Origin: a virus
Lineage: Duplodnaviria; Heunggongvirae; Uroviricota; Caudoviricetes
Length of the DNA stretch: 43,452 nt
IMG/VR virus record: IMGVR_UViG_3300042348_001111
Span: 1-43,452 of that record
Reading direction: 5' to 3' (one strand)
In this document: positions 3,001-29,013 of the stretch, piece after piece
How positions within the stretch are numbered: position 1 is the stretch's first letter
Layout of the letters: every line of letters begins with the position of its first letter
Notes under the pieces: generated by a model
What the model was told of the DNA's origin: nothing
Database searches by the model: none
Seen by the model: only the letters and a program-made list of their open reading frames with translations
Position numbers and translations under genes: made by a program

Positions 3001-6000
3001 AGTTCGACTAAACGATCAAGATGTTTTTGTAACGCCTGCTGAGCATAGGTGTTCAATTGGTTACGAAGTGTAACCATTACATCTTCAGGCAGTTCTTCAA
3101 ACTTAGTACCTGCAAAAGCAAAATCACGCAAACCTGTGTTGGTGTCGTTGGTGACCAGTTCTGCGTTTGCCTGAAAAAAATCTGGTATCTTGCCAATAAA
3201 GTTGTATGCACGCAAGTCTGTGCTATCAACTTCTGCCTTTGTCACATCATCTTTTTGATGTGTAGCGTTAAACTTCAAAATCAGACTGTGCTTTTCTCCT
3301 GCGTCAAAGACCTGTTTTCTTTCAAGTCTTTTGTTGTACTCACGCTGAATACGATTGTATTCCTGACGCACAGCATTTGTAAGTGTGTCTGTTATTTTAA
3401 GGTGTCCATCTTTTGTTTTTAGCATGCCTTTATTATCAGCATACTGCTCATATAATGCAGAAATCAAAAAGTTAGTCTGCGATGACTCAAGCTGTGAAAA
3501 ACTTCTCAGGTAAGTTTGTATCTCAACAAGTTTGTCTTTTCCTTCAGCGTCTTTGATAACTTGTTTGTGAGAGGTTCTGTTCAGAAAAGAAAGAAGGTGT
3601 GTGATATACATTGACTTGCTGTCAATGTTTTTAAAACTTTTACCAGGTTTGAACTTGCCGTCAAACACCTGGTTTACTCCACCAAACATTGCAACGCGGA
3701 AGTTGCGTAAGAACAATTCCTGCTTTGCTTTGAAAGTAGCGTTGCCTTCTGGATCAAGCAAAACACCCATTGCTGGATTGTCTTTGAACCAGTCGTTAAC
3801 ATACTCTTCAAAGTAAGGATCCTCTCTTAGCGTTTCTTCCAATCCTTTTCTTCTTAATGTTTGCGCCAAACGTAGCGCTGGCGTGTAACTCACAAACCGG
3901 TAACGCGACTTGTTTTCTGAGTCTTTAACTGTACTCTGTATACCTTGTGGGTCATATTTGACCATGTAAGCAGCTGCTCTGCGTAAAATAACATTGAAAC
4001 GATCTACTGTCAGTTCAGCATTTTTGTCTTTAGTTATATACCTTGCAAAAGCGTCATGATTATTTTGGTTGTTGACAGCTTCTTTAATAATTTGTAAGAT
4101 GCTTAAAAAAAAGTCTTTTTCAAAAAAGATTCCTTCAGCAATCATCTGTTCATGACTGTTGTAATGATCTACAACTTCTTTGCTAAGCTGCGTGTTGTCA
4201 TGCACTACATTGTTTTGCGTCTTGTCTATTGCAAGCAATGATAAACGTATCAGAGACTTGGGCACGTTAATACCTACAGCATTCATAAGCGTGTGCAACT
4301 CACTTGTGAGTTCTTCAAGCTTTTCACCCTGGTTATCACTGTCTAAAATAAAATTGCTTTCATAAATTGTTCTTGATAGAGTACTCAAGTCCTGTGCAGC
4401 TTTAAGATATGCTTCATCTTTTGCAGAAGAAGCGTGCTTGGTCTTAATGCTTGTAATAATCTGTGTCTTGCGGAGGTTGATATCCTGAAACAAAACCTGG
4501 TCCTTTATAGTATATGAACTGGTTTCTGTACCCATATCCATACCTGATGGGTCAGTTTTTTTATTGGTATAAACAGTAGTAGTGATAAAGTCAAGCTCAG
4601 TAGTATCCAGCGCATCAATCATCATATTGTAAAGTTGCTGATTGCTTTGGGGTCTACCGCTGCTGTCCATGTTTGTGAACTTGTGCAGCTTGTCGTAAAT
4701 GTTGTCAAGATCATCTGCCAGCAAGTTGTTTCCATCATAGCGTGCAGTATTGGCAACAACCTTAATATGATCAATGATATTGTCTACTTCAACATCTGAT
4801 GTAACGCTCATAAGTACACCAAACATCTGGTTACCGTTTGCAAGACGTGGCAGCGTAATGCCCAGTCTTTCATCTACACGGTTATACTTTAGCAGTGCCA
4901 AAAACCTTCTGATTTCTTTGTTGACTCCTTCAAGTTTGTTGTACTGATTTAGTCCACTGTCAAAATCTGCAGACTCAGTTTCCTGGTCGTTAGAACCAGT
5001 TTCATCATCTTCGTTATACACAGGAGGATTTTCATCTGTGAGTAGCTCTTCTAATTTTTCTCCTGTAAGCGTGTCTTCTTGTTCTGGTTTGCTTTCTATA
5101 AGCGTATTAATCTTTTCAAAGTTTGCTTTGACAAGTTTCATCAAGGTCTTTTTAGACTCTTGACCATTAGTGTTGTCTACAAAGCTGTCTCCTGTACCGT
5201 CATTGCGCTTTACTAAATTAGGACGTACCAAATTATCATAGTCAGGATTACCTGTGTTGTTCAAGTCAGGCAGTACTTCATTCCGCATGCGTGCACCCAA
5301 CATAAAACGATAGTTCTTCCAGGTATTGCCTAAAACTTCAAGAATCTGATCACGTTTATCAGGATGATTTGCAGTAAGTCTATCAAGGTTGTACACTTTG
5401 GCCAAAATAAATTTAGCTATTCTGTCAAAGTTTTGCTCAAACGTCTGCTTGTTATTATATCTTTTGAGCATGTAGTAAGTCACCATATTGACCAACTCAT
5501 TTTGCTGTTCTGCAGAATTAAGACTTCCAATTCTGTCTGTAATTCCTACACCGCCAGGCAAATTTTCAATTTCAACCAGACCTTCAATAATCTCATATGC
5601 TGCCTGACCATCATATATGTCAGAAGCCATTACAGAAGAACTTGCGTAGTAACCGCTGCTTACGCGTGAGTACATTCTGTCAATTTCATTGCTCTTACCT
5701 GTAAACATTTCAATCAAACGTTTGAGCAACTGCATCAGGTCACCAAGAATACCTTTAGGTTTCTTGTTGTCTGTCATATATTTTTGAAAACCATCTGCAA
5801 GAATTTCTTCTGCCTGAAGTTGTTTCATGCGCGTCTTGTCATAGACATAGTTACGCTTGCGTGCAAACTCTTTGAGTGACTCTTCTGTAAACTTAGAAGC
5901 ATGGACTTTCATCCCAGATACCAAGTCTACAAGACCTGCGCGATATGCATCTGTCATCAAATATCTAAACACACCGTGAAAGGCCTCATGGTAAACAGTA

Positions 6001-8957
6001 CCTTTCCCTTTAATTTGATTGTTCAGATAGATCACACGGTCTTTGAACATCCCCAATACAGTTCCATCTAGGCTTGCAAGATCATTCAGTGTAGATAGAT
6101 CAAACTCTGAAAGCTTAAACTGAGGGTATGTTTTCTTTAACCAAGCAACAGCGCTGAGACGTTCAGCATCTGTTTCTGTTTCTACATTGCCTGCCATCAT
6201 GCTAAACAAAGGCATGCGTGGTATGTCAATAGTGCTAGGTGCTACAGGTTGTTGCGTAGGATTTTGTACATGAATTTGTACCGGTTTTTCTACTGTAACA
6301 GGTACTGGAGCAGGAGCAGGAATACTGCTTAGATTACTCACATTATTTTTAGGAGTAATAACAAAACGCCTCATGCCAGAATCAACATGCATGTAGTTGT
6401 TCAGGTTAGAACCAAAACGTGCACGTGCGTTAATACCATTTTTAGGAGTGTATTTTGGTGAAAAAGAAATATTTGGTACAACAGTACCATCTTTTTCTTC
6501 ACGAAAAAACAAAAACTCTGGTCTAAATACACCATTGTAAGTAAAATCCTCTTTAAGATTCTGCATGAACCTGGGATCTTCACTGGTCTGTGTCTCAAGT
6601 TTGTTAAGCACCTGATTACGAATTTGCTGTGAAAATCTTTCTCTTGCTTCTTTAACAGCATTAGCAAGTTCTACAATCAACCCATCAACAGAACCTCTGC
6701 GGCTCATGACAGTAATTGTCCTGTAAAACTCGTAAAGATCTTCAGCTTTACTAAGATCAAACTTTGCAAGCTCAGGAAACTTTTCCTGAATTTGTTTTAC
6801 AAGTTTTCCTTCACTAAGCGCTTTTGCAGTAGTAGTGATGATTTTTTCATCAAACAAAAAGTTGTAAAGCCTTTTGTTCTCCTCCATAAAACCATAACGA
6901 TTATCTTTTCTGGCGGTCTTAATCCAAAATTGAAGTTGACCTTTTTTTGTAGTTGAAAAAGCAACATAAAGTGGTTGATCATTTTTTGTTTTGCTACTAG
7001 CAGGCTTAAAAGAATACTCATAAAATTCAAAGTTTTTTATGTCTGTTTCTCTATTGGTACTGTTAGTCAATACAGTGCTAAGCTCAAAAATAAAGTTGGC
7101 AAACTCTTCTACTGGTGACATTGTACCCACATTTTCTGCAATATTGTAGGTAGGAATCGCACCATCTCTAAACTTAATGACCAGGTTCATTTGATCCTTG
7201 TCTGTAGGTTTTAAAAGATTTTCTACAGTCCTAGGATTAAGACCAAGTATTTCTTTTGCATACCGTTCCATACTCAATAGAATGGGTTCAGCACCTGACT
7301 CTGGTATATACTCTATTTTTTCATCTTTATCCAGCAAATCCACCATTTGAAAATCTGCTAACGTTTTGCGAATACGATTATACAAAAATGGTATCTGGCG
7401 TTCTTCTTTAACTCCAGTCTTTGTGTTAACAACCGTAAGCTGCTTGTATAGCGTAGGATCTGACTCAAGTTTTTTACCAAGAGGTGTAAGAGTCTTAAAA
7501 GACCGTGTGGACTGCATTTCATACGCGGCAGCAAACTGCTCTGTAATATCTATAGAGGTTTCACCACTGGTAAATTCTGACATCAAATCATCCTGCACAG
7601 ACGCTACAAACTCTTGGTACTTCTCTGCGCTGTCTTTGATGTTTTCTAAATCCTGCTCTGTAAGTTCTACGTTTCCTTTGTTTGTTGCTTTGACACTAAG
7701 ACGCTTTAACTCTGCAAGATGTCCTGGATTGCTAAAATCTACCCGCTCTGTAGTGTTGTCAGAAGATACAAAAGTGTAGTTGTTGCTGCTGTACAGGTAA
7801 AACTTTTTGTCTGTTCCTATAAAGCTTCCAACCAATACAAAGCTTTGCTCTGATGCTTTAGGGCGCGACACTGTAACTACCTTGCCATTGCTTTCAGAAA
7901 GTAGGTAAGCTCTCTGCGCACTGTTCTCAAATGTCTCGTGGTTTCTGTTAGCAAGCTTAGCCATTGATGGATCAGACTGTGCCAGGTTTTGAATACGCTG
8001 AACGCGCTCATCACCTACATTGCTGATCTTTACAGCATGTATCCTAATCCTAGTAAGAGGTTGTGGTTGGTTAAGTAACTTGAATATCTCAGCAGTTTCT
8101 TCTTCATTGACTGCTTTTACGCGAAAGCTGCTTAAAAGTGTGTCTTCAAAAAAGACGTTTTCAACCGTGTTTAACTGATAAGACTCTGCAGGTATTGAGA
8201 ATTTAACGTTTGCAATCTGCTCCTGAGCAATAGGCTCCAGTGAACCGTCATTGTTCAGAGTGTATAGTACCTCGTTTTCAGAGACAGCTTCCACCATCTG
8301 ACCGTTGGTTAGTGTCACCAGCATGTTTTTAAGCTGTGCCTCTTCTGCAATTTCACTGATAGGGATAAAGTCTGAACGCTTGTCCAAACTAGCAAACATG
8401 TCACCTATCAAAGACTCAAGGCCATCTTTGTTGTCCTGAGGCATCTGACTGTCTATAATTTGCTGACGCAGTGCCGCTGAAAGTTGCTCCAGTAACTGGG
8501 TTCTTTCTTCCAGATTGGCAAAACTGTGAGTAGCAAAGTAGTTTTTGATCAGAGTTACTATGCCATTGGTTCCCACCAGGTCTGACCGGTTGATGACTGT
8601 TTTGCCACCAAGTGCATCAATTTTTTTAGTGATGCTGTCTAGTTTAAGTTCTGCAGGTTTGGATATACCATAAAGTTCTGAAAGTATCTTTACATACCCC
8701 TCAGGATTTTCTGTAGCAGCGGTCATATTACTGACTTGGTCAGCCCTACCTTTTTCATAGTATGAAGAGTCCAAGTCAGCAAGACCCGCGTAGATGTGTG
8801 CCAGGTTATGCACAGAAAGCATCTTCTGCTCAGGAGTCAGCCCGCTTCTCAAAATAAAAGAAGCAGCATTGTCAAAGTTATTATATACAGTAGGCTCCAG
8901 TCTTATGAGATCTAGAACAACACCTGTGTACTTGTCAGTTTGTATTTGACACGCCAT
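1..8957 (-). CDS. Giant virion-packaged DNA-dependent RNA polymerase (crAss-like vRNAP) with N-terminal zincin-like domain; 3' end truncated by window edge
   Basis: ATG at 8957 (MACQIQTDKYTGVVLDLIRL). The same frame reads sensibly at 5976-5990, 876-1020 and 3-140, and the ORF track shows no stop-terminated ORF in this frame, implying about 2985 open codons. Motif FATRIPTEDKRSMIVLKVVDFIDSANLNGIIVPHFVHLLAGSDFDVDSLY has the DxDxD catalytic motif at 876-890 (first D is residue 2690). HEAFH at 5976-5990 is followed by EEILADGF. It follows the cargo genes as in crAss-like phages. Confidence 0.93.
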   Translation of the reverse strand, partial: MACQIQTDKYTGVVLDLIRLEPTVYNNFDNAASFILRSGLTPEQKMLSVHNLAHIYAGLADLDSSYYEKGRADQVSNMTAATENPEGYVKILSELYGISKPAELKLDSITKKIDALGGKTVINRSDLVGTNGIVTLIKNYFATHSFANLEERTQLLEQLSAALRQQIIDSQMPQDNKDGLESLIGDMFASLDKRSDFIPISEIAEEAQLKNMLVTLTNGQMVEAVSENEVLYTLNNDGSLEPIAQEQIANVKFSIPAESYQLNTVENVFFEDTLLSSFRVKAVNEEETAEIFKLLNQPQPLTRIRIHAVKISNVGDERVQRIQNLAQSDPSMAKLANRNHETFENSAQRAYLLSESNGKVVTVSRPKASEQSFVLVGSFIGTDKKFYLYSSNNYTFVSSDNTTERVDFSNPGHLAELKRLSVKATNKGNVELTEQDLENIKDSAEKYQEFVASVQDDLMSEFTSGETSIDITEQFAAAYEMQSTRSFKTLTPLGKKLESDPTLYKQLTVVNTKTGVKEERQIPFLYNRIRKTLADFQMVDLLDKDEKIEYIPESGAEPILLSMERYAKEILGLNPRTVENLLKPTDKDQMNLVIKFRDGAIPTYNIAENVGTMSPVEEFANFIFELSTVLTNSTNRETDIKNFEFYEYSFKPASSKTKNDQPLYVAFSTTKKGQLQFWIKTARKDNRYGFMEENKRLYNFLFDEKIITTTAKALSEGKLVKQIQEKFPELAKFDLSKAEDLYEFYRTITVMSRRGSVDGLIVELANAVKEARERFSQQIRNQVLNKLETQTSEDPRFMQNLKEDFTYNGVFRPEFLFFREEKDGTVVPNISFSPKYTPKNGINARARFGSNLNNYMHVDSGMRRFVITPKNNVSNLSSIPAPAPVPVTVEKPVQIHVQNPTQQPVAPSTIDIPRMPLFSMMAGNVETETDAERLSAVAWLKKTYPQFKLSEFDLSTLNDLASLDGTVLGMFKDRVIYLNNQIKGKGTVYHEAFHGVFRYLMTDAYRAGLVDLVSGMKVHASKFTEESLKEFARKRNYVYDKTRMKQLQAEEILADGFQKYMTDNKKPKGILGDLMQLLKRLIEMFTGKSNEIDRMYSRVSSGYYASSSVMASDIYDGQAAYEIIEGLVEIENLPGGVGITDRIGSLNSAEQQNELVNMVTYYMLKRYNNKQTFEQNFDRIAKFILAKVYNLDRLTANHPDKRDQILEVLGNTWKNYRFMLGARMRNEVLPDLNNTGNPDYDNLVRPNLVKRNDGTGDSFVDNTNGQESKKTLMKLVKANFEKINTLIESKPEQEDTLTGEKLEELLTDENPPVYNEDDETGSNDQETESADFDSGLNQYNKLEGVNKEIRRFLALLKYNRVDERLGITLPRLANGNQMFGVLMSVTSDVEVDNIIDHIKVVANTARYDGNNLLADDLDNIYDKLHKFTNMDSSGRPQSNQQLYNMMIDALDTTELDFITTTVYTNKKTDPSGMDMGTETSSYTIKDQVLFQDINLRKTQIITSIKTKHASSAKDEAYLKAAQDLSTLSRTIYESNFILDSDNQGEKLEELTSELHTLMNAVGINVPKSLIRLSLLAIDKTQNNVVHDNTQLSKEVVDHYNSHEQMIAEGIFFEKDFFLSILQIIKEAVNNQNNHDAFARYITKDKNAELTVDRFNVILRRAAAYMVKYDPQGIQSTVKDSENKSRYRFVSYTPALRLAQTLRRKGLEETLREDPYFEEYVNDWFKDNPAMGVLLDPEGNATFKAKQELFLRNFRVAMFGGVNQVFDGKFKPGKSFKNIDSKSMYITHLLSFLNRTSHKQVIKDAEGKDKLVEIQTYLRSFSQLESSQTNFLISALYEQYADNKGMLKTKDGHLKITDTLTNAVRQEYNRIQREYNKRLERKQVFDAGEKHSLILKFNATHQKDDVTKAEVDSTDLRAYNFIGKIPDFFQANAELVTNDTNTGLRDFAFAGTKFEELPEDVMVTLRNQLNTYAQQALQKHLDRLVELQVLKKEKRPLRTATGAVYIQTGTDGTITRYTSEFIAPVLIVDGRKQENVLENKYYKTPKNYGEKLKGSEIKPIEIPKQENMEGFVADAFFNFWANSLTVNDLLDGDSAMNVKDPSDYFKRQKKQLAAGSTPKRGDHKVAYINTIKAFIHETYPMYGPYYNADEILGDERLSENLRDILIADFAKAQSGVKERITDPSTGIERTIKYGDMMREVFDGQSFSTLMHQMDMHDAMGRLSAEAAELMIAKHYRKLTADEISLLERNNIVNNSKKTVTSTRNAYHKQSEVHIDRNDVSVFVIPEEVLVSPERKREYIKKAQDTIHMLYAEVYSLRDAAKEAKIAGLDPAPFMTQIKVNMQEIHKYYKPIPSRKILHDLLNAMEFHQIDHLMDTTASKNATLLPVDIFTESQKLTEGSYINLEMSSVAVDNRYKFLQVETSGVKDTAKFSVQAKALIAADLLNIAEIMRASGRDIAESEQKSMEKVATILRTYQRTLKDVGESNLINLKTILRKDGDFEVGKIFTLIRTSLESQGAPVNTLKLFDLNVDGTPVHSPNLPGIRNMLEYYFFSQYSKHITDEKRSGFKSIHMSSFGYDLMTDMDGNIIRSEDYRRNPARYPNVKTRPLGVSVETNADGTKTYFVEAIVPKPQFRNKEHEEFYMKQLTKMFATRIPTEDKRSMIVLKVVDFIDSANLNGIIVPHFVHLLAGSDFDVDSLYGQTLAHYFNADDNPVLYGDYSAYSSEDAGRYTEFVEYMSKDDDAKMLVKSELAKIEAMGESYKPSDNAKTFVGYTAERLSEDVDTLKNYDAVLAAFEKLGLPVTLENFLANPKYKKVTRPAFQNANLRSMMDILSNEAVFNYLYINERSSVQAFEDIAEEFGRDVKQMGGGYNHLSIDGVVATKNISGVYKSGIGIAANINKFVALASQFGLELNSENVIWQFQIAVEKGKTETGDTEYDLTLRKYTNFGTLSEENQRVIASIGNILGMFADGVKKPIPSALGMNEEN

Positions 8958-8984
8958 TATAGTTGGGTTAAAAAAGAAATGTGC

Positions 8985-13319: not shown

Positions 13320-13325
13320 TATTAC

Positions 13326-15992: not shown

Positions 15993-18900
15993 TTAGTCAA
16001 GTTCCACCCAGGGCAAATACATCTCACCACCATATTCGCGTAATGGAACAGGTAATGTCAGTCCTTGTGCAGACATTTGATTGAATTGTTGACGAGGAGT
16101 AATTCCCATGACTTGTCTTTGCTGAGCTGACATCATTTGATTTACAGAGTTAGTAGCATAGCGCTTAGCTTCTTGATCTCCCATAGTTCCTCTAGCTTCT
16201 TGATAAATTTGGTTCCACTGGTCAACATTTGCTATAGGGTTCATAGCTACCTGGCGTGACATGTCTGCATACGCTGGTGAGTAAGTGTCAGGACCAAGAG
16301 CATCACGACTCTGACCAGAAAAATCTGCATTACCTGTGATAGGATCAATGTATACTTGAGGAAACAATACTTGTTCCATTTGTTTTTTGCGAAACCAGTT
16401 AGTAGTGCCGTTGTTGAACGCTGCAATTTGACGCCACTTCTTTTGCTGTTCTGCATTATCCATCTGCTGATTCAACGTGGCCATGTCTTCTACATATTTC
16501 TGACGACCAGTTTCATTAGCAACAGCTTCCTGATTGTTGATCTGGGCATTAGTCATGTAAGCTTGGTTGACAATACCTACATTGCGGTTTTCTGTATCTG
16601 CAAGTACATTAGCTGCATTAGCAAAACCTTGACCTGATGCACCTAACATAGAAGCCAATGCTACATTACCATCAGTTGTGTTCATTGCTTGTTCTTGCAA
16701 ACGAGCCATTTGCTCTTGATTAGCAGCAAGTTGACGTGTAGGATCAAGAACTGTGTAACCAGGTGTCTGTAATTCTACTCTTCCTTGAGTAGGTTCATAG
16801 CGGTTTACCCTATCAGTAAGTGTTCCTGTAAAGTTTACAATATCTTGTAACCACCATGGTCCTTGTTTGCGAGGTTGTGCAGGTGCGGCTTCTCCTACAG
16901 CAATGTTAACTGGTTTCTTAGGTTCTTCTTTAGGAGTTTCTTTATTAGCTTGCTCTACAGGTGCATCAAAAAAACGCGGAACAGAATAGGTTACTTGACC
17001 AAACTTACTGTCACGTTTGTAAGGTGAGTTATTAGCACTACTTGCATCAGCAAAATAGGGAACCCCAAATTGCTGCATGCTTTTTTCATTAATCTTATCC
17101 TGAAACCAACCTGCAGCTTTGTCACCGGTTTCTTGACCAGCAATCAAATCTTTTTTGTACTGCTCAAAACCACCAGCATACTCTTTGTCTACCCAATCAC
17201 CATGGCGATCTTTAAAATCCTGCCATTCTTTTTCAGAAAGATTACCACTATTACGTGCTGCAGCATTACCAGAAGACATGTATATCCCTGTATTACCCAT
17301 TCTAGGTTGATTACCAAAAGAACCAAAGTTTGTTTCAGTGTAACGCACATTGGGTGTTTTGGCAAGCAACTGATTTATGTTTTGAGAACCATATTGTGAA
17401 AACTGCGTGTCTGTTCTGGTACCAGACATAATAATCTTTCCATTGACATCTTTAATGTATTTCTGGTCACCTTTGTAAAAACGATAAAAAGTCTCACCGT
17501 CCTTTGTGTACTGACCCATTGCAATTTCTTGGTTAGGATCAATGCGTTGATTAGGTGTGTTCTGTACTTCCGGCTGATTTGCAGCAGTTGTAGTCGTACT
17601 ACCTGTCTGTCCAGCATCTTGATATTGATTCAATACAAAACCTCCTGTTCTAAAAGAATTAAATGCTTCATATGCAGCATCTGACACGCCAGCGGGCTTA
17701 GCAACTTTTGTTTTAGGTGCTGAAGATGCGGGGATTGCAGTATTTTTAGGTGCAGTAGCTTGAGTATTTGTGTTAGTTACTGCAGAAGCAGAAGTAGACT
17801 TGGGTTCTTCAATTTTAGTAGTTCCTCCAGGAACGTCAGCACCAGGCGCCTGATTTTGAGAACCAGAATTTGCAATACTTACAAAATCAAATGTATTGTT
17901 TTTTACAGATCTGCTAATAAAATCATTGCTTAAATTTTTAGCAGTACCTACACGTTTTCCATTTTTGTCAATTTCAAAAACTTTAACAGCAGGTGTGTAA
18001 CTATTACCAGGACTTACTTCTGTAAATATTCCAGTAGTTGGACTTGACATGTATGTTCCTCGAGCAGAACTTACATTTGCTGCAAAAGGATCTTCAACTT
18101 CATAAAGCTTTCCGTCAGCATAAAACTTACTTCCTTTTGCAAAACGTTGACCGGCTATTGTTTCTTCATTTGAATCATAATAACTTTTGCCTTCTTGTGA
18201 ACTTGTTACAAACGCACGATTTACACGACCTTCTTTATATCCCAAGTCAACAGGTTTACCTGAATCAATTCTTTTTTTAAGGTCTTTTGAGTTAGTCTTG
18301 TAATATCTACCATCTTCTGATTTAAAAGTTACAATATCCCCTGTACCCCAAAAATCAGCATCTTCATGCTTTTGATAAGTAAAAGGCACATTGTTAATGT
18401 AAATAGTAGTTTGAGGAGTATACTTTAGATTAAACCCACCCTCTTGAAGTTTTTTTACACCACCATACTTTGCATCTGACATCTCAGCTTCACCTTCTGG
18501 TTGCAGTCCTGCCATTACTGAATCAGCAATTGCAGGAACACCATCAGGAAAACCTTTCATAGACTCTTGTACAAGAGCTAGCATACCCAGCTTTTCCATA
18601 TTGTTAGCAAGCATCTGCGTAGCAGAACGCTTTGTAATTGCGTCAGCGTCAGGGTTTTTTAGATCCTGGATATACTGGTTAATCTGATAACGCTTAGCAA
18701 TTTCAGCAGGTGTGTATCCTCCTGCTTTACCACCCATTCCAAATACTTCTTTGAGAATCTCTTTATCTTTAATCTTGAGTTTCTTAGTATCTGAAAAAAT
18801 AAATGATCCTTCAGGAATGTTTACAGGCATCCCTCCGTTTGAATGACGTTTGCCTACAAAAGTCATATGCTCAAGAAATCCATCGCGATTAACATCACCC

Positions 18901-19079
18901 ACCACTGTTTCACCACCCTCTACCTCAATATTTGCTTCTTCTATGGGTACTGCACCCATAGTATTTTTTACAGGAGCATTGGTATTACCCTCACCAATAT
19001 AATGTACTTGCCTGTGTACCAATGAGTAATCTCTTTGGTCTCCAGTTTTAGGTGACTTTGTTATCCTTATATTTTTCAT
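15993..19079 (-). CDS. Putative virion cargo protein (1028 aa), crAss-like cargo type
   Basis: N-terminal NIEVEGGETV...GKRHSNGGMPVNIPEGSFIFSD block that I recognise from crAss-like cargo proteins, x-x-x-GG motifs, low-complexity linkers and a Gln/Asn-rich coiled-coil C-terminal half. Confidence 0.65.
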   Translation of the reverse strand: MKNIRITKSPKTGDQRDYSLVHRQVHYIGEGNTNAPVKNTMGAVPIEEANIEVEGGETVVGDVNRDGFLEHMTFVGKRHSNGGMPVNIPEGSFIFSDTKKLKIKDKEILKEVFGMGGKAGGYTPAEIAKRYQINQYIQDLKNPDADAITKRSATQMLANNMEKLGMLALVQESMKGFPDGVPAIADSVMAGLQPEGEAEMSDAKYGGVKKLQEGGFNLKYTPQTTIYINNVPFTYQKHEDADFWGTGDIVTFKSEDGRYYKTNSKDLKKRIDSGKPVDLGYKEGRVNRAFVTSSQEGKSYYDSNEETIAGQRFAKGSKFYADGKLYEVEDPFAANVSSARGTYMSSPTTGIFTEVSPGNSYTPAVKVFEIDKNGKRVGTAKNLSNDFISRSVKNNTFDFVSIANSGSQNQAPGADVPGGTTKIEEPKSTSASAVTNTNTQATAPKNTAIPASSAPKTKVAKPAGVSDAAYEAFNSFRTGGFVLNQYQDAGQTGSTTTTAANQPEVQNTPNQRIDPNQEIAMGQYTKDGETFYRFYKGDQKYIKDVNGKIIMSGTRTDTQFSQYGSQNINQLLAKTPNVRYTETNFGSFGNQPRMGNTGIYMSSGNAAARNSGNLSEKEWQDFKDRHGDWVDKEYAGGFEQYKKDLIAGQETGDKAAGWFQDKINEKSMQQFGVPYFADASSANNSPYKRDSKFGQVTYSVPRFFDAPVEQANKETPKEEPKKPVNIAVGEAAPAQPRKQGPWWLQDIVNFTGTLTDRVNRYEPTQGRVELQTPGYTVLDPTRQLAANQEQMARLQEQAMNTTDGNVALASMLGASGQGFANAANVLADTENRNVGIVNQAYMTNAQINNQEAVANETGRQKYVEDMATLNQQMDNAEQQKKWRQIAAFNNGTTNWFRKKQMEQVLFPQVYIDPITGNADFSGQSRDALGPDTYSPAYADMSRQVAMNPIANVDQWNQIYQEARGTMGDQEAKRYATNSVNQMMSAQQRQVMGITPRQQFNQMSAQGLTLPVPLREYGGEMYLPWVELD

Positions 19080-19081
19080 AA

Positions 19082-19098
19082 TAAACTTCTGAAGTTTA
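19082..19098. promoter_or_regulatory. Perfect 17-bp palindrome TAAACTTC-T-GAAGTTTA just upstream of the 1028-aa gene
   Basis: 8-bp inverted repeat with a 1-nt centre, read directly, 2 nt from the ATG at 19079. Confidence 0.35.
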
Positions 19099-19120
19099 AA
19101 CTTGTGTGACCTTAAACCTC

Positions 19121-19137
19121 CTACATTTAGAATTTAC
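19121..19137 (-). promoter_or_regulatory. Candidate phage promoter/operator motif GTAAATTCTAAATGTAG (copy 1)
   Basis: Intergenic; near-identical copies at 31761-31778 and 37005-37020, all oriented with the genes. Confidence 0.5.
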
Positions 19138-19185
19138 GAATTTAATTCTGTTTTTCCTAACATGCAAGACTTAAAAATACAATGT

Positions 19186-21432
19186 TTAGTTTATGTATTC
19201 TATCTGACCACCATTGGCCAAAATAGCTTCAATTTCATCTTCTGAAAGATAGTATTCTCCACCTTCTTCATAAAATTTTGTTCCACCGTATTTTGCAGAT
19301 GCCATACTTGTACCAAAATCTTGAATAGGTGTGTTAGCAATTAACGCAAAATTACTACCAGGACCAGCATTCAATGTGTAGTTTCCAAAAGGATTAACAG
19401 CATTTGATGCGTTATACCGGTTGTCAGTATTTCCTGTTCTACGCAACATCTCTTCATATTCTTTAGCATAATCACGTTCACTAAGAACATCATTTAACAT
19501 TCCCAAGCCCGCAATAGCATTATTAGCAGCAAGTTGTCCAAACGGATCACCATATGTTGTTTGTAGAACCTGTGGCATTTGCAAGTTCTGTGGCGTTTGC
19601 AAATAAGGATTTGCAGTTTTAATCTGTGGTTCAGGTACTGGAACCTGAACAACTTGACGCACCGGCATTTTAGATAATTGCGGCGTTACAGGAACATTTG
19701 CCAAAGGATTAGCGACTATTGACGGAGTTCTCTGAAGTTGGTTAAACATGTTACGAGGCGCAACTTGAGGTAGTATAGGTTGAAGAGCCGGTGCGGCAGG
19801 TCTAGATACTTCTGAAACTGACAACGGTGTCATAGGTGTTACAGAACTTGTTCTTGGTGATTGTCCTTCAGGAGTACTCATGTTTAAAGAACCTATAAAA
19901 GAATTTAAGTAGTTCTGATAACCTGCAATATCATTACGTCTAAATACAGGGTTTTCTGCAGCCCATTCTTGAAATGTTTTAGCTTTTTGACCACCTGCTT
20001 GATATTTTACAGTTTGACTATAAGGATTATTGTTTACACCAAGTAGTTTACTGTAACCTAACCCTGCACCAGAAAGACCCGCAGCAGCTCCAGCAATGCC
20101 TTTAAGTGTGCCTAAAAATCCTCTATTGGGCAATGCCCACATCATGTTGCGAGGATCAGCCAACGTATTTGCAGTCATAAGACTTTTGTTCAACGCATTT
20201 GGAGCAAGATTTGCAAGAGTATTCTCATAATTTGCAGTTATTGCACCACCCTCTGCCCAGGTCCCAAAACGCTTGTGCCAATACAATGGAGAAAATGGAT
20301 CTTTTGCTTTTGAAGAATCTCTACCACCCATGCGATCCCAAAAACGCTCTTTGCGTTTAGGATTGCGATGTTGTGTAAAATCTTTCATTCCCTTCCAACC
20401 ACCATGTACCACTTTGTACTGATCACCTTTCTTTGCAAGCACCATCCACTTTTTACCAGGACGCGTTGACTTTCGTTTAGCACCTACTCTTGTGAAACCC
20501 ATAGTACGGTAACGCTGAGGAATACCACCGCCGTCTTTATACTGGGTCAAATCATAAATTTCACCACCAAGTTCTCTAGCAAAGTTTTTAGCAAAGTTTG
20601 CTTTCTTTACCATAGCAGGTGAGTACTTTTCTTTATGACGCAAAATGTAGTCTGCAGCTTCCTGTACGCTCATACCCATTCTAGTAGCCTGTGCTTTGAA
20701 AGTGCCTTTTTTAGCAGGATTAATTTTGATAGAACCACCCTTACGCATTTTTTCTGCAGAATCTATAGAATAAAGTTCTTCATCATCTTCTGCTATTTGC
20801 TCCTGCATCATTTGATCTTCTTGGTCTTCAAACTCCTGCATTTCATCATTGTTCATAGGAACATCTTCTTCTTCCATATCTGTCTCTTCAAGACCTTCCA
20901 TGGCTTCTTCTAAGATGTCTAGAGCATAGTCTTCTTCCACACCGTTTTCTATGAGCATGCCATAAATCTCGTTAGGATCATCGCCCTGCATAATCATCTT
21001 TGAAATCTCACCAATTGCAGCATTCAAGTCAGGTTGTTCCTGACCACTCTGATACATTTGGTCATTTTCTCCACCCTCCTGGTAAAACATCTCCATTGGG
21101 TTTACACTGTATTCTGCAATAGGACCACCTTGAGACATCTGTCCACCGCATTCCATGCAACCACCCATTTCTGCTTTGCGCCATCCACCACCACGCTCTT
21201 TGTACCACTTGGCAGCAAAACCATTCGCGTAGGCTGAAGGGTACACATCGTACTTTTGTTTTGCAGCAGCTTTTGCTCTGCTCCACAATTCTGGATTGGT
21301 GGGCACATTGCCACCATCCTTCATCATGTTTGCTTCAGGATATGCTGCAAAGAATGACGCTTCAGTAGGATACTTTTCGTAAAACTCTTTTTCAGAATTT
21401 ACACCAGCTATTTTTAGAAATTGTGTTTTCAT
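19186..21432 (-). CDS. Modular putative virion protein (748 aa): small basic modules, acidic tract and Pro/Gln-rich tract separated by x-x-x-GG motifs
   Basis: About 12 GG motifs. Modules include PTNPELW..PSAYA..YKERGGGW, IKINPAKKGTF..KANFAKN, and KSTRPGKKWMV..VHGG..DFTQH..RKERFWDRM. Confidence 0.7.
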   Translation of the reverse strand: MKTQFLKIAGVNSEKEFYEKYPTEASFFAAYPEANMMKDGGNVPTNPELWSRAKAAAKQKYDVYPSAYANGFAAKWYKERGGGWRKAEMGGCMECGGQMSQGGPIAEYSVNPMEMFYQEGGENDQMYQSGQEQPDLNAAIGEISKMIMQGDDPNEIYGMLIENGVEEDYALDILEEAMEGLEETDMEEEDVPMNNDEMQEFEDQEDQMMQEQIAEDDEELYSIDSAEKMRKGGSIKINPAKKGTFKAQATRMGMSVQEAADYILRHKEKYSPAMVKKANFAKNFARELGGEIYDLTQYKDGGGIPQRYRTMGFTRVGAKRKSTRPGKKWMVLAKKGDQYKVVHGGWKGMKDFTQHRNPKRKERFWDRMGGRDSSKAKDPFSPLYWHKRFGTWAEGGAITANYENTLANLAPNALNKSLMTANTLADPRNMMWALPNRGFLGTLKGIAGAAAGLSGAGLGYSKLLGVNNNPYSQTVKYQAGGQKAKTFQEWAAENPVFRRNDIAGYQNYLNSFIGSLNMSTPEGQSPRTSSVTPMTPLSVSEVSRPAAPALQPILPQVAPRNMFNQLQRTPSIVANPLANVPVTPQLSKMPVRQVVQVPVPEPQIKTANPYLQTPQNLQMPQVLQTTYGDPFGQLAANNAIAGLGMLNDVLSERDYAKEYEEMLRRTGNTDNRYNASNAVNPFGNYTLNAGPGSNFALIANTPIQDFGTSMASAKYGGTKFYEEGGEYYLSEDEIEAILANGGQIEYIN

Positions 21433-21433
21433 C

Positions 21434-24361
21434 TTAGTCGTTATAGTTGTCTAGCCAGTTTGTCTGACCACCTGTTTGACGTTTATTAGTAGCTTCTTTA
21501 AAATTAAGATAGCTTGCATTTTGTTTTACACGATCGCCATAATTTCCACGTCTATTCCATTTACTTGGCAAGTGTGACCAAATATCGCGTTTTTGATTAT
21601 CTGTTAACTGCTGATTATATCTTACACCTAACAATGCAACAGTTCCTATTGCTGCTTTTTCCGGATCCATAAAATCCATGTTTGATGTAATACCTAAAGA
21701 CTTTAGAACCTGTTTTTCATCTTCATTCAAATAGTTCCATCGTATTTGTGTCAAACCAACACTTCTAGACTCTTCGTTTGCACCATAAGTAGTAGCTTTT
21801 GACTTGTAGTCTGGCGAACTTGAGTTTTTAGAATCTATAAATTTAGCACTAGCTCTTGCAATATTTCCAACAGCACTGTGAGTATCTCCAAAATTAGATT
21901 CTGTACCATAAATGCCAAATGCCATTTGCGCAAGTTCATTATATACATCTGAAGGAATTTTTGCATTTTTCATAATGCTTTGTTTGTTTTTTACTAAAGC
22001 ATTGTAAAAAGGTTTTGTTGTTTGCTGATATTCTTTTTCATCATTTAAATCATTCCAAGAAAATACTTTTTCTTTAAATTTCTTTTCATCAAAAACAGCT
22101 TTTATAGGACTATATGAAAGTGTATTAACACTTTGATTTGCTCCTTGCCCTTTTTGTACTTTTCCTGCAGCATCAACGTAACTATTGTATTTGGCGCGAT
22201 TTTGAGCAGATACCTTAAGAACAGGTTTTCCATCTACAATCTGAAAACGATTTCCTTCATCTTCAGGTAAAACATAAACAGGTGTCTCAATGTCTACATG
22301 CTTTTGTAAATCTTTTAAATCAAAACATTTTCCATTAATGCAACCATAGCTCATTCTGTTATCTTCCACATTATCATTGTCAAATCTTGACCTTCTTCCT
22401 GTAGGTGTTCCGTGAATAGTAGTTGAAACCTCTATGCCACTGTCGTTTTTCAAATTAAAAGACGGAAGGCCATAATATGCCTTACTTGCGGGATCAATGT
22501 TTGAGATAGTGTATGCACCAGCTCCTGTTGATTTGTTGCCAGCACTCCAATCAGCTTTACCATTAACTACTTTTGTTACAGTTTGAGCATCTCCAGGATT
22601 TGCACCTACACCCACTTCATAGGTTTTCACAACCTTATCTCCTTTATAGACTTTCATTTGTGCGTTTTTCTTGTCTACAACAAGATATGTTTGTTCAGGT
22701 TTGTCGCTATAAAATCCTGTTATTAGTTGCTCATCAGGTAAATTGTTAAGCATGTCAAGATTTTTCTTTTTTTCACTCCAATCAACATATTCAGTACTAC
22801 CTGTTTGCGCATTGTTTACAGATGAACCTTGAGGAATGACAAGTTTTTGGTCAATGCCTATAATGTTTGGATTCTTTATGTTGTTGGCCTGAACAATTTT
22901 GTTGACTGTAGTTTTGTTTTCAGCGGCAATTTTGCTCAAAGTATCACCTTTTTTTACAGTATAAGTGGCGCCACCTTCATCATAATTATTTAACCAGTTC
23001 TTTGCTTCATTAAGCGTAGGAAGATCAATTTTTGTAAAAGGACTATCTTGCATCTCCATATACTTACGGAGAGTTTGTAAGTTTGACTTTACAACAGGTG
23101 CTAATGCACTTTTTGCAAGACCTGCTGAAAAACCTCCTACTACAGATTCTACTGCGGGAACATAGTCTACGTTGCCGGCAGCAGGTGGACCAAAAAGTTG
23201 GTCAACCTTCTGTCTGTTTTCCTTTGTGTTCTCGTACTTGTCAAGCCACTCTCCACCATTCTGCTTACGCTTATGCTGATAAGAGATTCTTTCACTTGAA
23301 GTTTTAGAACGCTTAAACTTTTCTTTTTCTGCACTGCTTAGTTCAGACGTTGTTTTGGGTGTGTCTTCTGAAATGCGTTTTGAAGGTCTGCATGCAGGAT
23401 AACCCGCGCGCTTTTCACCTTCTTGTCTTCCACACTCTTTACCTGTTTTGACATCTACCCATTTTTCAGCAAACCATCTATCTAAGCCACCATGCTTACC
23501 ACCACTTTGTTTTTTAACTAACTTTGTTTTAGCTAACTCAAGTATTTGATTGTAGTCACCACCTGCATTTTCCCAATTGTCTTCAACAAATTTTGTAAAA
23601 GTGTTGTTGTCTACGCCATAAGTTTTTGCAGCGTCATAAAGTCCTGGCAAGTTAAAACTACGTGCATACCATTTTGAGTCAGGTTTTTCACCACTTGACA
23701 TAATTTGTTTGCCTACCTGAGTAGCAATAGACTCACCTGTTCCAAAATTTGCACCTTTAACCAGTCTGACAAAAGGTATCAGTCTATCTTCTAATGCATT
23801 AATACTATATTTTGTAGGATTTTCTTGAAGTGCATTTATACCAGCATCTCCAATCCATCCCAAAGGAACTTTTGCAAACTCACTTAGTGCTGTCCAAGGT
23901 CTTCCTTGATTCAGCGCTTTGGCACCCATCATAACACTTCCGTATGGTATTTGATCAATAACTGTCTCTGTGGAAACATTTTTAAAAAAAGGAAATATGT
24001 CAGTAGGATTTTCTGCTTTTTGTTTTGCAATACGTTTTTGAGAAACAATCCTAGTGTTGTCTACTATTGGCGCAGATTGTGACAAAGCTCTTTGTCTAAG
24101 ATCTTCCATAGTAAACTGGCCACCACGTTGCATCATAGGTGTTTCTACAACATAATCGCCTGGAAAAAAATACTCTCCCCCAGGCATCATAAACATTTCA
24201 TTACCCAAGTTATCAACACCTTTCACAGGAAAGTCAACATCCTGCATGGTTATTCTACCAGAAGGAATAACATTTAGTGGCCTGTTAACATCAGGACTAT
24301 TGCGCTTATACCCTTGAGTGGATATAAACTTCATAAGTACATCCTTGCTATTTTTCATCAC
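21434..24361 (-). CDS. Modular virion-associated peptidoglycan-active protein: LysM + YkuD-type L,D-transpeptidase + lysozyme/SLT-like domain, with N-terminal small modules
   Basis: Lys[31 protein letters not shown] (~22832-22966). YkuD-like [24 protein letters not shown] (~22270-22690). C-terminal [24 protein letters not shown]. The likely start is the ATG at 24358, overlapping the upstream TGA. Confidence 0.8.
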
Positions 24362-27300
24362 CTTGAGCTGTTGATGTGCTTGCTATTTGTGAGTTTTAAT
24401 ACCATCTTTTTGTCACCACTGACGTTTTTGCGCAGGATGATATTGTTGCCATAGTGACGAAACTTCTTACGTTCAAGTGGTGACTTAAAGTAATCAATGT
24501 AGTCAGGGTTAATAATCTTCTGAACACCAGCACATTCTGTATTCCACATTGGTTCACGCGCAGTTGTAAATTCACCGCGATCTTTTGTGACATCCCAAAA
24601 CTGATTAAACCTATACTTGTTTTCTTCTTTTGAAAATAAAATCTCTATACCGCTTGTAGAAACTTGTGGATAGTTGACCAATTCTAAAGGAGCATTCTTG
24701 CCTTTAATTCTTAATTTAAGAAGTCCTGATATTTGCTCAGAGTTATACAATACAGCCCTGTCAAAATTTTCGTCAAGAATATGATGAAAATCTTTTCCGT
24801 CATTGTAAAACTTGTAAACATCCAAGGTGTATTCTACACTTCTAAGTGTGGTAACGGCATTTGGAGTTATCACAGGATATTCAATTTCCCATGCATAGTT
24901 TGTACCATAGTAGTTACAATAACTATCCCACCGGTCATTGTGCCTCCAAATAGCATTTTCTTTTATTGAAAGAAAGTGTCTGAAAGAAGGCATCAGCAAT
25001 GTTGGTTTCCAATCATGAAAACTTATCCATTGTTTGTTTTTAGGATCATAACTTATTGTCCAATGACAAGGTTTAAAAACAGCCGGATTGTCAAAACTGC
25101 AAAAAGTCTTTGTAGTAACAGGGTTGTTAGGTGAGCCTGATATTGTAACGTAATAGGGAACTCCTGATGGATCATCAAAAAGAAGATCGTTTCTCAATGG
25201 TGCATAGTCACGCTTAGTGAAATACACAATCTCATACTGTGAATCATAAATTGCCTGTACGCCAATTCCAACAACTGGATTGTCATAATATGGATACTCA
25301 GGATATACTTTTAAAAACTTGCTTGGAAGATTTTCATTAAACCAAAATTTCATACCATTGCGTGAAATCTCAGTAATTCCTCCAGCATACTGCATAATCT
25401 TACCAGACTGCTGTGAAACAAAAAATAAACCGTGAGGTGTATTGACTGCTGCTCTAGATGATATGCTACTTGCATAACCAATAGTGTCATCTGCATTGAC
25501 AAGAGCTTGCATGTTTCCTTGAAACAGACCTCCATCACCAATAGTCAGTTTGACACCACCGGTTGTCTGAAGCTGATCTACACCTACAAACATTACAGGT
25601 TCAGCATCTTCAAAAAGAATCATAGCGCCTGTAGCATTAAGATTCTTAATTGTGCTTATCTTTCCTGAGAAGTCTTTGTAGTTAAGCGCAAGATAATTTC
25701 TCCAATTATCTCGTCTAAGTCCAGACTGTTGTTGGAGGGAGTATATTCCTCTATTAGGGTAATATTCAAACTGTGTGGTGTATAATCTAGGGTCGTAGTC
25801 GCGGGGGAGTATAGAAGCCCAGGATGCAAAGTTGTTGAAAAGTTTTGATGCACTGAGAGATAAGTCATACTTAAAAAAGATTGGTTTTGTAATAAGATCA
25901 GATCTGAACATTGTGCTCAAATCATTAAAGGAGTTTCCATAAACATCGTAGAACTTTTCATAAGATTCTTGACCATAGTCGCGATACGCCATGTTCAATT
26001 CACTTTCTGTAAAGAAATCTCTTACGCCATTGTGAAACAAATACGCATAACTATTTCTTACTGTCAAAACCCCTGTTATAGAACTTGGACGATCTAAGCG
26101 ATGAAAATCACTTGGAGTATTAAGGTCAATTATTGGTGACGTAAATACACCATTTGGAAAAATGCTTATGTTAAAGTCCTGTGCATCATACTTTTCAAAA
26201 TTAACCCAATAACGTGGTGCAGGACCATTAACATAGTTGCGATAATCATACTCAGTCCTGTTTGGCATGTCATACATCCAGGTGTTAAAGAACATGTAAG
26301 GATTCTTTTCTGTGTAACGATTTATATACACATCTCCACCAAAAATTGGACCCGATGTAAATCTTTGCTCTGTTTCACTAGAAGTTAAAAACACACACGA
26401 TCCCGTAGGAAGTTGAACAACTGAGCTTAACTGACCATACTGATTTTGAAAGTCAACCTTTATAGCACCATAATATGCAACAGTAGTTGTAGTAATTTCA
26501 TTTTTTAAAGGGTCACTATAAGTGACACCACCATCTTTGATTCTGTGTTTTGTATTGTCTTGCCCGGTTACAGGATCCGACACAGTTGAAGACAGTTTTA
26601 ACGCCACATACTTGTTGCGATTAAGATTATTAATCCTGTGTGTTGCGTCAAAGTCATGTAAACCTGACCCTATGTATTTAGCAGATGATGGTATAATTTG
26701 ACGTCTAATAGACTTCTGCAATCCTCCTGGCACAGAACTATTACTCACATTAGAAAAGGTAGAGTAAAATCCATGGGAATTATACTGAAGCATGTATTGA
26801 CGTTCTTTAGAAATATTTCTTAAAACTTCCAATACCTGATCAATACCTTGACCAAAATAATAAAGACTACTTGTTGCTAAAACAGCAACACCAGCTGCAT
26901 TAACACCAATGCTAACAGGATTTTGAAATGCTCCTGCAATAATTGCAGGTAATACTGTAGCACTTCCAGACTCTGTTGAAGATGCGGTAGTTACACCTAT
27001 TCCACCAAGTTCACCTGAATAAGTTGTTTTGCCAAGAGCATTTATCAGTGCAATACCCGCTCCAACAACTGCTGCAATAGCAAAAGCACCATCTGAAAGC
27101 AAAACATGTTTTGGGTGCTTGTCAGGGAATTCATAGCGACCTGTTACTGTACCTCTCTCTTCTGTGTAAAGTTTGATATGATTTCCACCTAAGTAAGGTT
27201 TCACAAAGTTTGTTTCAACAGAGTGAAAAGAAAAAATATCTCTCTTATAGTTAGAAAGTTTTGAAGCTGACTCAATAGTGCCAGGATTAGCGGTACCGCT

Positions 27301-29013
27301 ATCCAAAACAGAATAGTCGTCTGTCAAAAAGTTATCTGGACGCAAATCATTGTAAGGATAATTCTGAATGAGACCTTTTCTTGAATTGTTACCGGCAAGA
27401 TTATACTCCAGCATGTTGTTGAACAAACCTTTTGCAACAATGGTGCGGTTGCCCTCACGCGAACCTCTCAGTATCTCATAACCAATAATGTCTGGTATTG
27501 GTTGATTATTTTCATTTACAGGATGAGCAATATTGGAAAATTCAACACCGAGAATAATAATTTTTGTACCTCCTTGGTTGTGAATGTGAATAGTTTCATT
27601 AGAAGGCATTTTGTGATGCCTAATGGGTTTACCACACAATGTGTCCCAAACAGGTTCTTTATCATCAGGATAACGTTCTGTAGACTCCCAGTATGACATA
27701 TCACCTTTGGCAATAATGACGCCTCCATCAGGTGTAGTACCAGTTGCGTTGTACTTGGTAGAAGTATCATACACCTGCCAAGCTTTATTTTGAGAAGATG
27801 TAAGCAAGTCTGGACCAGAAACAGTAGTGGTATCTACTGAATTGGAAGCACGTCCTGGAATATGAAAAGATGCAGAACGCGCACCAGTTCTGTATATCCA
27901 ACGTATAAAAAATGGGTACACTTCATCACGCATGTAACCAACTGTGTTTCCACCACCCCAATAGTAGTCAGCAGGATACTCAGCAGCTACCCATGAAGCT
28001 CTAATTTGATTTGCTAAAGGCTGATAGTTAAAATATGGTTGTGTGGTGACACCGGTTCTAATAAGGTAATCATTTACCTCAAACATTTTTTCACTCTTTT
28101 CATATACCACAGATTTAAGTGGTATCTGAGCAATGTCAATTGTAGGAAGACTTTGCAAAAATAAATCAAGTGTAACTTTGCTTTGTCGTATAGAGTAGTA
28201 TCCAATCTTTTTAGCAATAGTCTGTTGATTAATAACAGCTATTACTACAAGTTCGTACTCATCAAAATTTTGATCAAGATTTGTAACTGAAATATCAATA
28301 GAACCACCAATGCCTGAGTGATCCCAAATAGCTTGTGGATTACTAGGAATAGAATAGTCTGTAAGACGTACTCCATTTTCAGAATAAGCTACACATGCAA
28401 TGTAACTACCATTGTTTAGCTGACCTGCACCCTGTGCTTTACTAACCTTCACACAAGGTTGTGTAACCAAAGGATGAAGTCTTAACGCGTCACAATCTAA
28501 CTCTTCTGAATAGAGTGGCTCATAACAATTAGGATCAGAATTTGCATCTCCTATTACTTTATATGGCACCCTGTCAAGATTCAGAACACGATCAGGGTTT
28601 AAATTGTCTGCAAAATATACAGAATCAGTGCCGTCATAGTTGCCTTTGACTACTGCAGATATTAGGTGTGTTTTTTTAAAACCCAAACATGGGTCGTTCA
28701 CTACAAGAGTGTAAGTACAGTTGCTCTCATCAAAGATGCCTATTTCTGAAGCAGTGTCATTACCAGATAAAATTACCCACCGCGTCTGAGAAATATGCGC
28801 AAAGCCAAGGATTGTGTAAGGAACTGTAACGCAAATCTGGTTAGAAGGTTCATTTCCAATAGAACCCGACTCTCCATAATGAGAATTGTTAATAGCATTT
28901 ACAGCATTAAGCCAAACTCCTTCTGACATATAAATGTCAGTATAGTCTTTGACCATGCCTTTGTGAAAGCTATTGGTCTCAGTTACACTGCTTTTGCTAA
29001 AATTTTCGCTCAT
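24358..29013 (-). CDS. Muzzle / tail stabilisation protein (P22 gp10-like, crAss-like), 1551 aa
   Basis: Beta-propeller-like N- and C-terminal regions ([14 protein letters not shown]; [20 protein letters not shown]; [12 protein letters not shown]), plus size and position after the ring genes. Confidence 0.8.

Follow-up and report, generated by a model that had tools for sequence, protein, structure and literature searches.

The window analyzed here comprises the first 43.4 kb (43,452 nucleotides [nt]) of viral record IMGVR_UViG_3300042348_001111, a single contig of 121,380 bp with a completeness rating of 96%. It is the virion module of a crAss-like phage with a genome of roughly 121 kb. Its minus strand carries all large genes, and every feature of the window described below lies on that strand. 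Three genes at positions 15993 to 24361, directly downstream of the gene for the muzzle (tail gatekeeper), encode predicted cargo (ejection) proteins of 975, 748, and 1028 amino acids (aa). These cargo proteins are modular chains whose joints, where modules have been inserted, lost, or swapped, are marked by a conserved peptide that ends in Gly-Gly (GG). The peptide is a family trait, conserved over hundreds of relatives and specific to C1-type cargo genes. We tentatively read it, at somewhat less than an even chance, as an uncut tag of junctions and termini that would combine a hinge with a short docking strand.

The second cargo protein (748 aa, P0002; 19186..21432), defined by its translation, GG counts, Pfam matches, and homologs, is GG-rich. 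It begins with a leader (aa 1-36), MKDGG, the N-terminal half of DUF5872, AEMGG-CMECGG-QMSQGG, YQEGG, and an acidic helical module; continues with MRKGG, a module named here for its IKINP sequence, RELGG, YKDGG, DUF5754, WAEGG, and a glycine-zipper-like helix; and ends with YQAGG, a P/Q-rich part, and an AKYGG-YEEGG-LANGG tail. The tail, AKYGG-x-YEEGG-EYYLSEDEIEAILANGG-QIEYIN (aa 713-748; 19189..19296), is nearly invariant in 17 homologs. The IKINP module (aa 232-290; 20563..20739), which lies between MRKGG and RELGG, is homologous to residues 364-419 of phiCrAss001 gp45. The BLASTP match of P0002 190-283 to gp45 337-419 has an E value of 8e-5 and concerns this one module only, and the module also has tblastn matches in gut crAss-like phages. 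An AlphaFold2 model of the protein consists mainly of disorder plus three small confident helical modules.

The first cargo protein (975 aa, P0001; 21434..24361), defined by its translation, Pfam matches, and GG contexts, runs from an N-terminal domain through MQRGG (24119-24133), a helical part, the C-terminal half of DUF5872, and a LysM-YkuD-lysozyme-like cassette to a C-terminal tag. Pfam places DUF5872 at residues 279-354, LysM at 467-510, and YkuD at 558-697. The other GG strings are KQSGG (23498-23512), KQNGG (23252-23266), YDEGG (22970-22984), after which LysM begins 3 residues on, and RQTGG (21467-21481). The LysM/L,D-transpeptidase/lysozyme-like cassette (aa 465-960, about 500 aa; 21482..22969) directly follows YDEGG. 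On its left is an internal junction tag (aa 455-464; 22970..22999) that aligns with the C terminus, NWLNKYDD and stop, of cassette-less relatives, and on its right is a C-terminal tag (aa 961-975; 21437..21481) that repeats the NWLxxY tag and also ends the corresponding proteins of related loci L009 and L011. We regard the cassette as flanked by a repeated tag because it starts right after the tag and the protein then ends in the tag again; the tag is a direct repeat around the cassette at both the protein and DNA levels. The cassette is found in the window, L009, and L011 but is missing from L001, L002, and L003, where the gene ends at ...NWLNKYDD. L005 has three copies of the NWLxxY tag.

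Gain and loss of modules was assessed by pairwise comparisons of close relatives (muzzle 92% identical; 15 pairs). Insertions or deletions (indels) of at least 20 aa touched a GG in 16 of 44 cases, compared to 8.2 ± 2.6 expected, and 15 of those 16 were in the first two protein families. The cassettes concerned include one of 60 aa in L009 that is not in the window and is bounded by MMQRGG and RMQGGG; one of 27 aa in L002 that follows WAEGG and ends in QQGG; one of 169 aa, also in L002, that ends in YYKK-GGQHGG; and, in L001 and L007, a SET-domain cassette ending in WMQRGG (Pfam E values of 4e-6 and 4e-7). In the 1028-aa family, only 1 of 14 such indels touches a GG. Therefore, the proposal of an earlier sequence-only reading that GGs bracket discrete modules holds for the 975- and 748-aa proteins, where Pfam limits, invariant GG columns beside variable segments, and cassette indels agree with it, but is overextended for the central part of the 1028-aa protein. 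We relied on the pairwise comparisons because redundancy, together with noise from disordered linkers, inflated an all-against-all indel test on a 26-sequence alignment, and that test was set aside.

The sequence of the peptide is conserved across relatives. In the best 120 of 1811 homologs of the 748-aa protein, GG occurs 2.14-fold over expectation (minimum, 1.33-fold). The positions around GG in these 120 homologs are biased, with M (27%), Y (16%), or W at -3, A/K/Q/E/R at -2, E/M/Y at -1, E/Q at +1, and M/I/Y at +2; the consensus is [M/Y/W]-[A/K/Q/E/R]-x-G-G-[E/Q]-[M/I/Y]. The GG pairs are invariant in the 26-sequence alignment, while the intervening segments diverge or are replaced or lost. 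The peptide has two intergrading forms. One is [A/M]-[K/R]-[Y/F]-G-G followed within a few residues by [Y/F/L]-x-[E/V/D]-G-G, and the other, also used as a C terminus, is Q-x-G-G-x(0-3)-W-L-[D/N]-x-Y-x-x-(G-G). Peptides are often paired (AKYGG-x3-YxEGG) or arranged around a W-L-D-x-Y core (Q-x-GG-x-WLDxY-x-GG), with neighboring GGs spaced just 6 to 8 residues apart. Residues after GG are conserved as well, frequently alternating with hydrophobics (GGEIEYLD, GGSIKINP, GGEMYLPWVELD), and conserved tails continue past the last GG (GGEIEYLD, GGxxNWLDNYxD, GGEMYLPWVELD). A position-weight matrix built from homologs of the 748-aa protein mostly recovered the orthologous sites, with 8 hits in that protein, 1 hit in the 975-aa protein, and no hit in the remainder of the genome, and it was set aside as circular. 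No description of the GG peptide was found in the searchable literature.

The proteins encoded right after the muzzle are GG-rich in every related lineage (30 versus 13.1, 28 versus 14.0, 26 versus 13.4, and 25 versus 12.8), and the third, roughly 1030- to 1150-aa protein is not. Similar GG contexts are also found in three proteins that have little or no sequence similarity to these cargo proteins: gp040 of Cellulophaga phage phi4:1 (14 GG versus 7.1; FQAGG, YQNGG, FQIGG, and FQSGG), which is annotated as a virion protein by tandem mass spectrometry, gene49 of Bacteroides phage R. jaberico (16 GG versus 4.1), and gp45 of phiCrAss001 (21 GG versus 13.2).

The sequence-only reading had located 21 x-x-x-G-G strings in the three proteins, and all 21 are present as located, 5 in the 975-aa, 12 in the 748-aa, and 4 in the 1028-aa protein. 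The list was selective. The three proteins contain 35 GG runs, and the list passes over 4 of the 9 in the 975-aa, 4 of the 16 in the 748-aa, and 6 of the 10 in the 1028-aa protein. Domain-internal GGs occur both among the unlisted ones (KERGGGW in the N-terminal half of DUF5872; VVHGG and DRMGG in DUF5754) and among the listed ones (MECGG, which aligns with the CHKCGG zinc-ribbon knuckle of a homolog). When GG counts were compared to 2000 composition-matched shuffles, the 748-aa protein was strongly enriched (18 versus 6.6, p<0.0005); no count enrichment was found for the 975-aa (9 versus 6.1, p=0.15) or 1028-aa (10 versus 8.0, p=0.27) protein. The pattern is indeed absent from the 881- and 1444-aa proteins encoded downstream, with one GG each versus 3.4 and 5.5 expected, and the 881-aa family has few GGs in every relative. 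At 14 of 35 sites, the third position before GG holds Met or an aromatic residue, a feature previously ascribed to most sites; outside the three proteins, this is the case at 9 of 102 sites of the genome (Fisher p=8e-5). With the 748-aa protein excluded, M/Y/F/W is at -3 in 5 of 19 sites (p=0.08).

The third cargo protein (1028 aa, P0003; 15993..19079), defined by its translation and not enriched in GG, has conserved GG elements only in AKYGG-VKKLQEGG (18435-18473), which follows the N-terminal domain, in WVDKEYAGG (17169-17195), and in the tail REYGGEMYLPWVELD (15996-16040). A Pfam search assigned this protein to no family. Its comparison to phiCrAss001 gp45 was not significant (BLASTP E value of 0.39; hhalign probability of 0.2), a phmmer search against the PDB found nothing for homology to gp45, and these sequence comparisons leave such homology only suggestive.

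Structures of phiCrAss001 (PDB 7QOG, 7QOI, 7QOJ, 7QOL, and 8CKB; Bayfield et al. 2023, PMC10172136) include its cargo protein 1 (C1, gp45), which is among the closest known counterparts. The portal-bound piece of gp45, residues 425-552, is reported as one stretch (PMC10172136; PDB 7QOG chain M). It starts with AFGG-WLNTQGG and includes NEGG, for three GGs in all, and MFAYGG comes next, at 558-563. A tail-barrel helix, residues 214-245, begins four residues after SAYGG, and FAEGGG follows at 260-265 (numbering checked on the protein of 842 aa and 90.8 kDa). Both solved pieces begin at a GG motif or no more than four residues past it, and both stop short of the following motif. The phiCrAss001 paper mentions neither a GG peptide nor cleavage (PMC10172136), and none of the phiCrAss001 bands (15-300 kDa) in sodium dodecyl sulfate-polyacrylamide gel electrophoresis could be assigned to gp45 from the text or supplements. 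The system described here resembles phiCrAss001 C1 (gp45) in gene position after the muzzle, in the IKINP module, and in being GG-rich; in gp45, the motifs bracket the two solved pieces. While gp45 is a virion-packaged ejection protein, the same role is assigned here from the genes of an uncultured phage. Unlike in phiCrAss001, the function would be spread across three genes, with extra modules (DUF5872 halves, DUF5754, and LysM-YkuD-lysozyme).

In the reading that we favor, the genes right after the muzzle would encode C1-type cargo (ejection) proteins built as chains of small, mostly independent modules, and the conserved short linear peptide [M/Y/W]-[A/K/Q/E/R]-x-G-G-[E/Q]-hydrophobic joins modules and ends chains. 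The peptide would stay uncut, providing a flexible Gly-Gly hinge and a short docking strand. Any cassette bounded by tags could then be accommodated behind the portal and within the tail barrel, the cargo would pass through the tail channel one module at a time, and the repeated tags would offer recombination a safe joint at which to swap cassettes. A docking or packaging tag had been one of two functions suggested in the sequence-only reading. It is the one that agrees better with the conservation of residues following GG and of the C-terminal tails and with the structure of phiCrAss001, although the suggestion was extended too far in covering the 1028-aa protein.

Several observations weigh against an uncut docking tag. 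AlphaFold2 gave a mean pLDDT (predicted local distance difference test score) of 39 for the whole 748-aa protein (26 sequences) and a pLDDT of 48 for residues 1-250 of the 1028-aa protein; hinge and strand geometry was not established because both models are of low confidence. A Foldseek search of the 1028-aa 1-250 model against the PDB returned nothing below E = 1. Docking is a candidate function only, and the published phiCrAss001 structure does not establish that the chain runs unbroken from one solved gp45 piece to the other (PMC10172136). An invariant double glycine with biased upstream positions also resembles a protease site, and modules of mixed destination in one chain, a peptidoglycan enzyme here and SET in relatives, would favor release by cleavage. 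The five large co-packaged proteins (window 3-15971, genome 111120-121346) are GG-poor (14 versus 25.6 expected, P=0.009), which could reflect avoidance of a GG-directed cut. Lastly, the giant co-packaged protein has a zincin-like HEAFH...EE motif that is invariant in 5 relatives at 44-54% identity.

These points bear on the strongest alternative, in which the GG peptides are cleavage sites and the cargo proteins are polyproteins that the zincin-like domain, an unrecognized protease, or a host protease would cut, either in the capsid or following ejection. We consider this alternative possible but rather unlikely. Maturation of polyproteins had been the other suggestion of the sequence-only reading, and the cleavage alternative draws support from the invariant GG pairs with bias at P5-P3, from the chain-sharing of modules with different destinations (LysM-YkuD-lysozyme here, SET in L001 and L007), and from the separately translated 748-aa protein, which keeps a leader and MxxGG ahead of its first module. 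The GG depletion of other large packaged proteins is a further point in its favor and is weak: the remaining open reading frames (ORFs) are not GG-poor (100 versus 86 expected), but there is no depletion in phiCrAss001 or phi4:1, and helical proteins are perhaps GG-poor anyway.

For such cleavage, the zincin-like domain is the only candidate processing enzyme. Its HExxH motif, YHEAFHGVF...AEEILADGFQ (5778..6005), occupies aa 985-1060 of the giant ORF at 3..8957, and phiCrAss001 gp47 has the same YHEAFH, as YHEAFHVVF. The giant ORF is open across the contig ends (window 3-8957, genome 117162-121380), with >2985 aa in the window and 4400 aa if the record is circularly permuted, and its counterparts in relatives are open frames of 3788 to 4245 aa. 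A Pfam/Atlas examination of the HExxH region identified no peptidase family, with the polyvalent-protein domains LPD23 and LPD1 as weak leads only, and Pfam MPTase-PolyVal PF18818 had no match in the genome. This zincin-like domain was already known and was suggested to process fused cargo polyproteins (bioRxiv 10.1101/2020.03.07.982082), and a corresponding role was proposed by Iyer et al. in the case of polyvalent proteins (PMC5512222). The giant fused protein is itself the expected zincin substrate, but it is not GG-rich (5 versus 7.3). Furthermore, zincins usually prefer a hydrophobic P1' residue, and none is found right after GG.

The GG-directed proteases named in the sequence-only reading were looked for by family. 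Pfam C48 Ulp (PF02902), C5 adenain (PF00770), and C39 (PF03412) had no match in the 96%-complete genome, with pS273R-type C63 not searched; the prohead-protease families S77 (PF03420), S78 (PF04586), and ClpP (PF00574) also had no match in the genome. The motif does not follow the consensus of the GG-directed families either. Adenain-type sites follow (M/I/L)-x-G-G/x, with the cut after the second Gly and a hydrophobic residue at P4. Like the targets of adenain (C5), Ulp/SUMO (C48), and C39 proteases, the peptide ends in Gly-Gly, and some copies read Q-x-G-G like the SUMO tail. Unlike those targets, the sites here are multiple, internal, and closely spaced, with the hydrophobic residue three positions before the first Gly (P5) and A/K/Q/E/R at P4 (-2). 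C39 substrates have a single N-terminal leader, whereas the motifs here are internal, repeated, and C terminal. The 6- to 8-residue spacing of GGs and the conserved tails past the last GG would be wasteful if cut off, and the portal-bound 425-552 piece of phiCrAss001 gp45 is reported as a single stretch despite its three GGs (PMC10172136). It is likewise possible but rather unlikely that the GG tags are a new kind of processing site that is cut by the co-packaged zincin-like domain or an unrecognized protease in the capsid or on entry. If cleavage did occur, peptidoglycan enzymes, membrane pieces, and cytoplasmic effectors would be released separately, and the low GG content of the polymerase-associated proteins would be an adaptation for evading the protease. 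One special case, Hedgehog- or intein-like self-cleavage at EMGG/CMECGG in the 748-aa protein, was rejected: no HINT domain follows that site, and its cysteines align with the zinc-ribbon knuckle.

Recombination alone could also maintain such joints. The GG peptide would then be a neutral flexible linker that carries no protein-level signal and is kept since recombination between repeated linkers exchanges cassettes, much as DNA-level linkers do in modular phage evolution. The NWLxxY direct repeats around the cassette in protein and DNA and the clustering of indels at GG are consistent with this, as is codon usage within 15993-24361, where the first Gly of GG is GGT in 81% of cases versus 54% of other glycines and the second Gly is unbiased. 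However, DNA sharing extends over only about 6-9 nt, codons near the motif vary, and amino acid conservation holds over hundreds of diverged homologs, including at termini where nothing is joined. We think that a neutral linker is improbable. The GGT bias may serve to avoid GGAGG or GGGGG. GGTGG was also considered as a Chi-like recombination signal and rejected, as there is only one exact GCTGGTGG. Least probable, in our judgment, is that there is no single motif and that the 21 strings are a mixture of domain turns, a zinc-knuckle remnant, and glycine-rich disorder picked by eye. This view is favored by the unenriched 975- and 1028-aa proteins, with M/Y/F/W at -3 in 5 of 19 sites, by the domain-internal KERGGGW, VVHGG, DRMGG, and MECGG, and by a T4-like cyanophage protein in which other, lysine-rich GG linkers connect these small domains. 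Against it stand the strong enrichment found throughout the 748-aa family in a common context, the cassette borders at GG, and the recurrence of the pattern in nonhomologous cargo proteins of distant crAss-like phages.

The uncut junction tag that we favor has partial counterparts in other delivered proteins. T4 internal proteins have an N-terminal capsid-targeting leader that is cut after L/I-x-E by the gp21 prohead protease (S77). Like these capsid-targeting sequences, the GG peptide would be a short peptide marking proteins for head loading and later injection. Unlike the single N-terminal leader of T4, it is internal, repeated, and C terminal and ends in GG, in a genome without an S77 match. 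The cargo proteins also resemble the polyvalent proteins of phages and conjugative elements (Iyer, Burroughs, Anand, de Souza, and Aravind 2017, PMC5512222), which carry several unrelated effector domains per polypeptide, undergo rapid domain shuffling, and are delivered with DNA, with a zincin-type peptidase proposed as their processor. P0001 combines LysM, YkuD, a lysozyme-like domain, and a DUF5872 half, and P0002 combines a DUF5872 half and DUF5754. The polyvalent-protein paper describes no junction peptide, and the words “linker” and “glycine” are absent from its text (PMC5512222).

The wider gene order is that of a crassvirus, in which cargo (ejection) proteins come after the muzzle (PMC10172136). 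On the minus strand, the major capsid protein gene (40920-42563; PHROG major head protein, E value of 1e-34) is followed by genes for several virion proteins, the 1551-aa muzzle, the 975-, 748-, 1028-, 881-, and 1444-aa proteins, and the giant ORF. The muzzle homolog (24358..29013; PHROG virion structural protein, E value of 4e-69) has a collinear BLASTP match to phiCrAss001 gp44 (E value of 2e-7). The three cargo genes lie directly downstream of the muzzle gene in the same order in the comparison set of 17 related uncultured loci. The portal and large terminase genes are just outside the window. By the muzzle protein, the closest cultured relatives are Cellulophaga phages phi4:1 and phi17:2 and Flavobacterium phages.

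Other features of the cargo genes were noted. The first cargo proteins share, family-wide, an N-terminal leader, ILMKFIxxQ, and the SET methyltransferase domain is the first cassette after a common 19-aa leader in L001 (14665-17280) and L007 (15997-20529). The two DUF5872 halves are on separate proteins, the C-terminal half on the 975-aa protein (23300-23527) and the N-terminal half on the 748-aa protein (21184-21303); in fused relatives the C-terminal half precedes the N-terminal half, so that the order is permuted relative to the Pfam model. Homologs P0009 and P0011, from outside the window, have a 244-aa intein-like insertion, which starts with Cys and ends in ..ITGN/S, in the N-terminal half of DUF5872 between DVYP and SAYANG. 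The insertion point corresponds to about 21235-21240 in the window and suggests that this site may be functionally important. In the gap that separates the stop codon of cargo gene 1 from the cargo gene 2 start codon (ATG), a tandem 11-nt unit, GTAMCGACTAA, is present in 3 to 5 copies in L001 (17280-17340) and L002 (18090-18135), while the same intergenic spot in the window (21425-21440) has one copy only (AACGACTAAGATG). In L002, a TAA-to-CAA change causes read-through into the 11-nt repeats, adding QVTTK to cargo protein 1. Outside the crAss-like phages, SBM3_00185 (L025 121-1134) of Synechococcus phage S-BM3, a T4-like cyanophage, adjoins a small terminase gene, has 9 GG versus 4.0 expected, and strings both DUF5872 halves and other minimodules via lysine-rich GG linkers. 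Therefore, bead-on-string arrangements of small modules with GG joints are not limited to crAss-like phages.

Crassvirales are the most abundant human-gut phages, and their relatives are common in water. A short tag, conserved across the order and placed at cassette joints, would give a handle on how crassviruses select their cargo, place it behind the portal, and deliver it. It would explain how injected enzymes, including peptidoglycan hydrolases, SET methyltransferases, and others, are swapped among close relatives with the carrier protein left unbroken, and it could provide a rule for spotting injected effectors in metagenomes.

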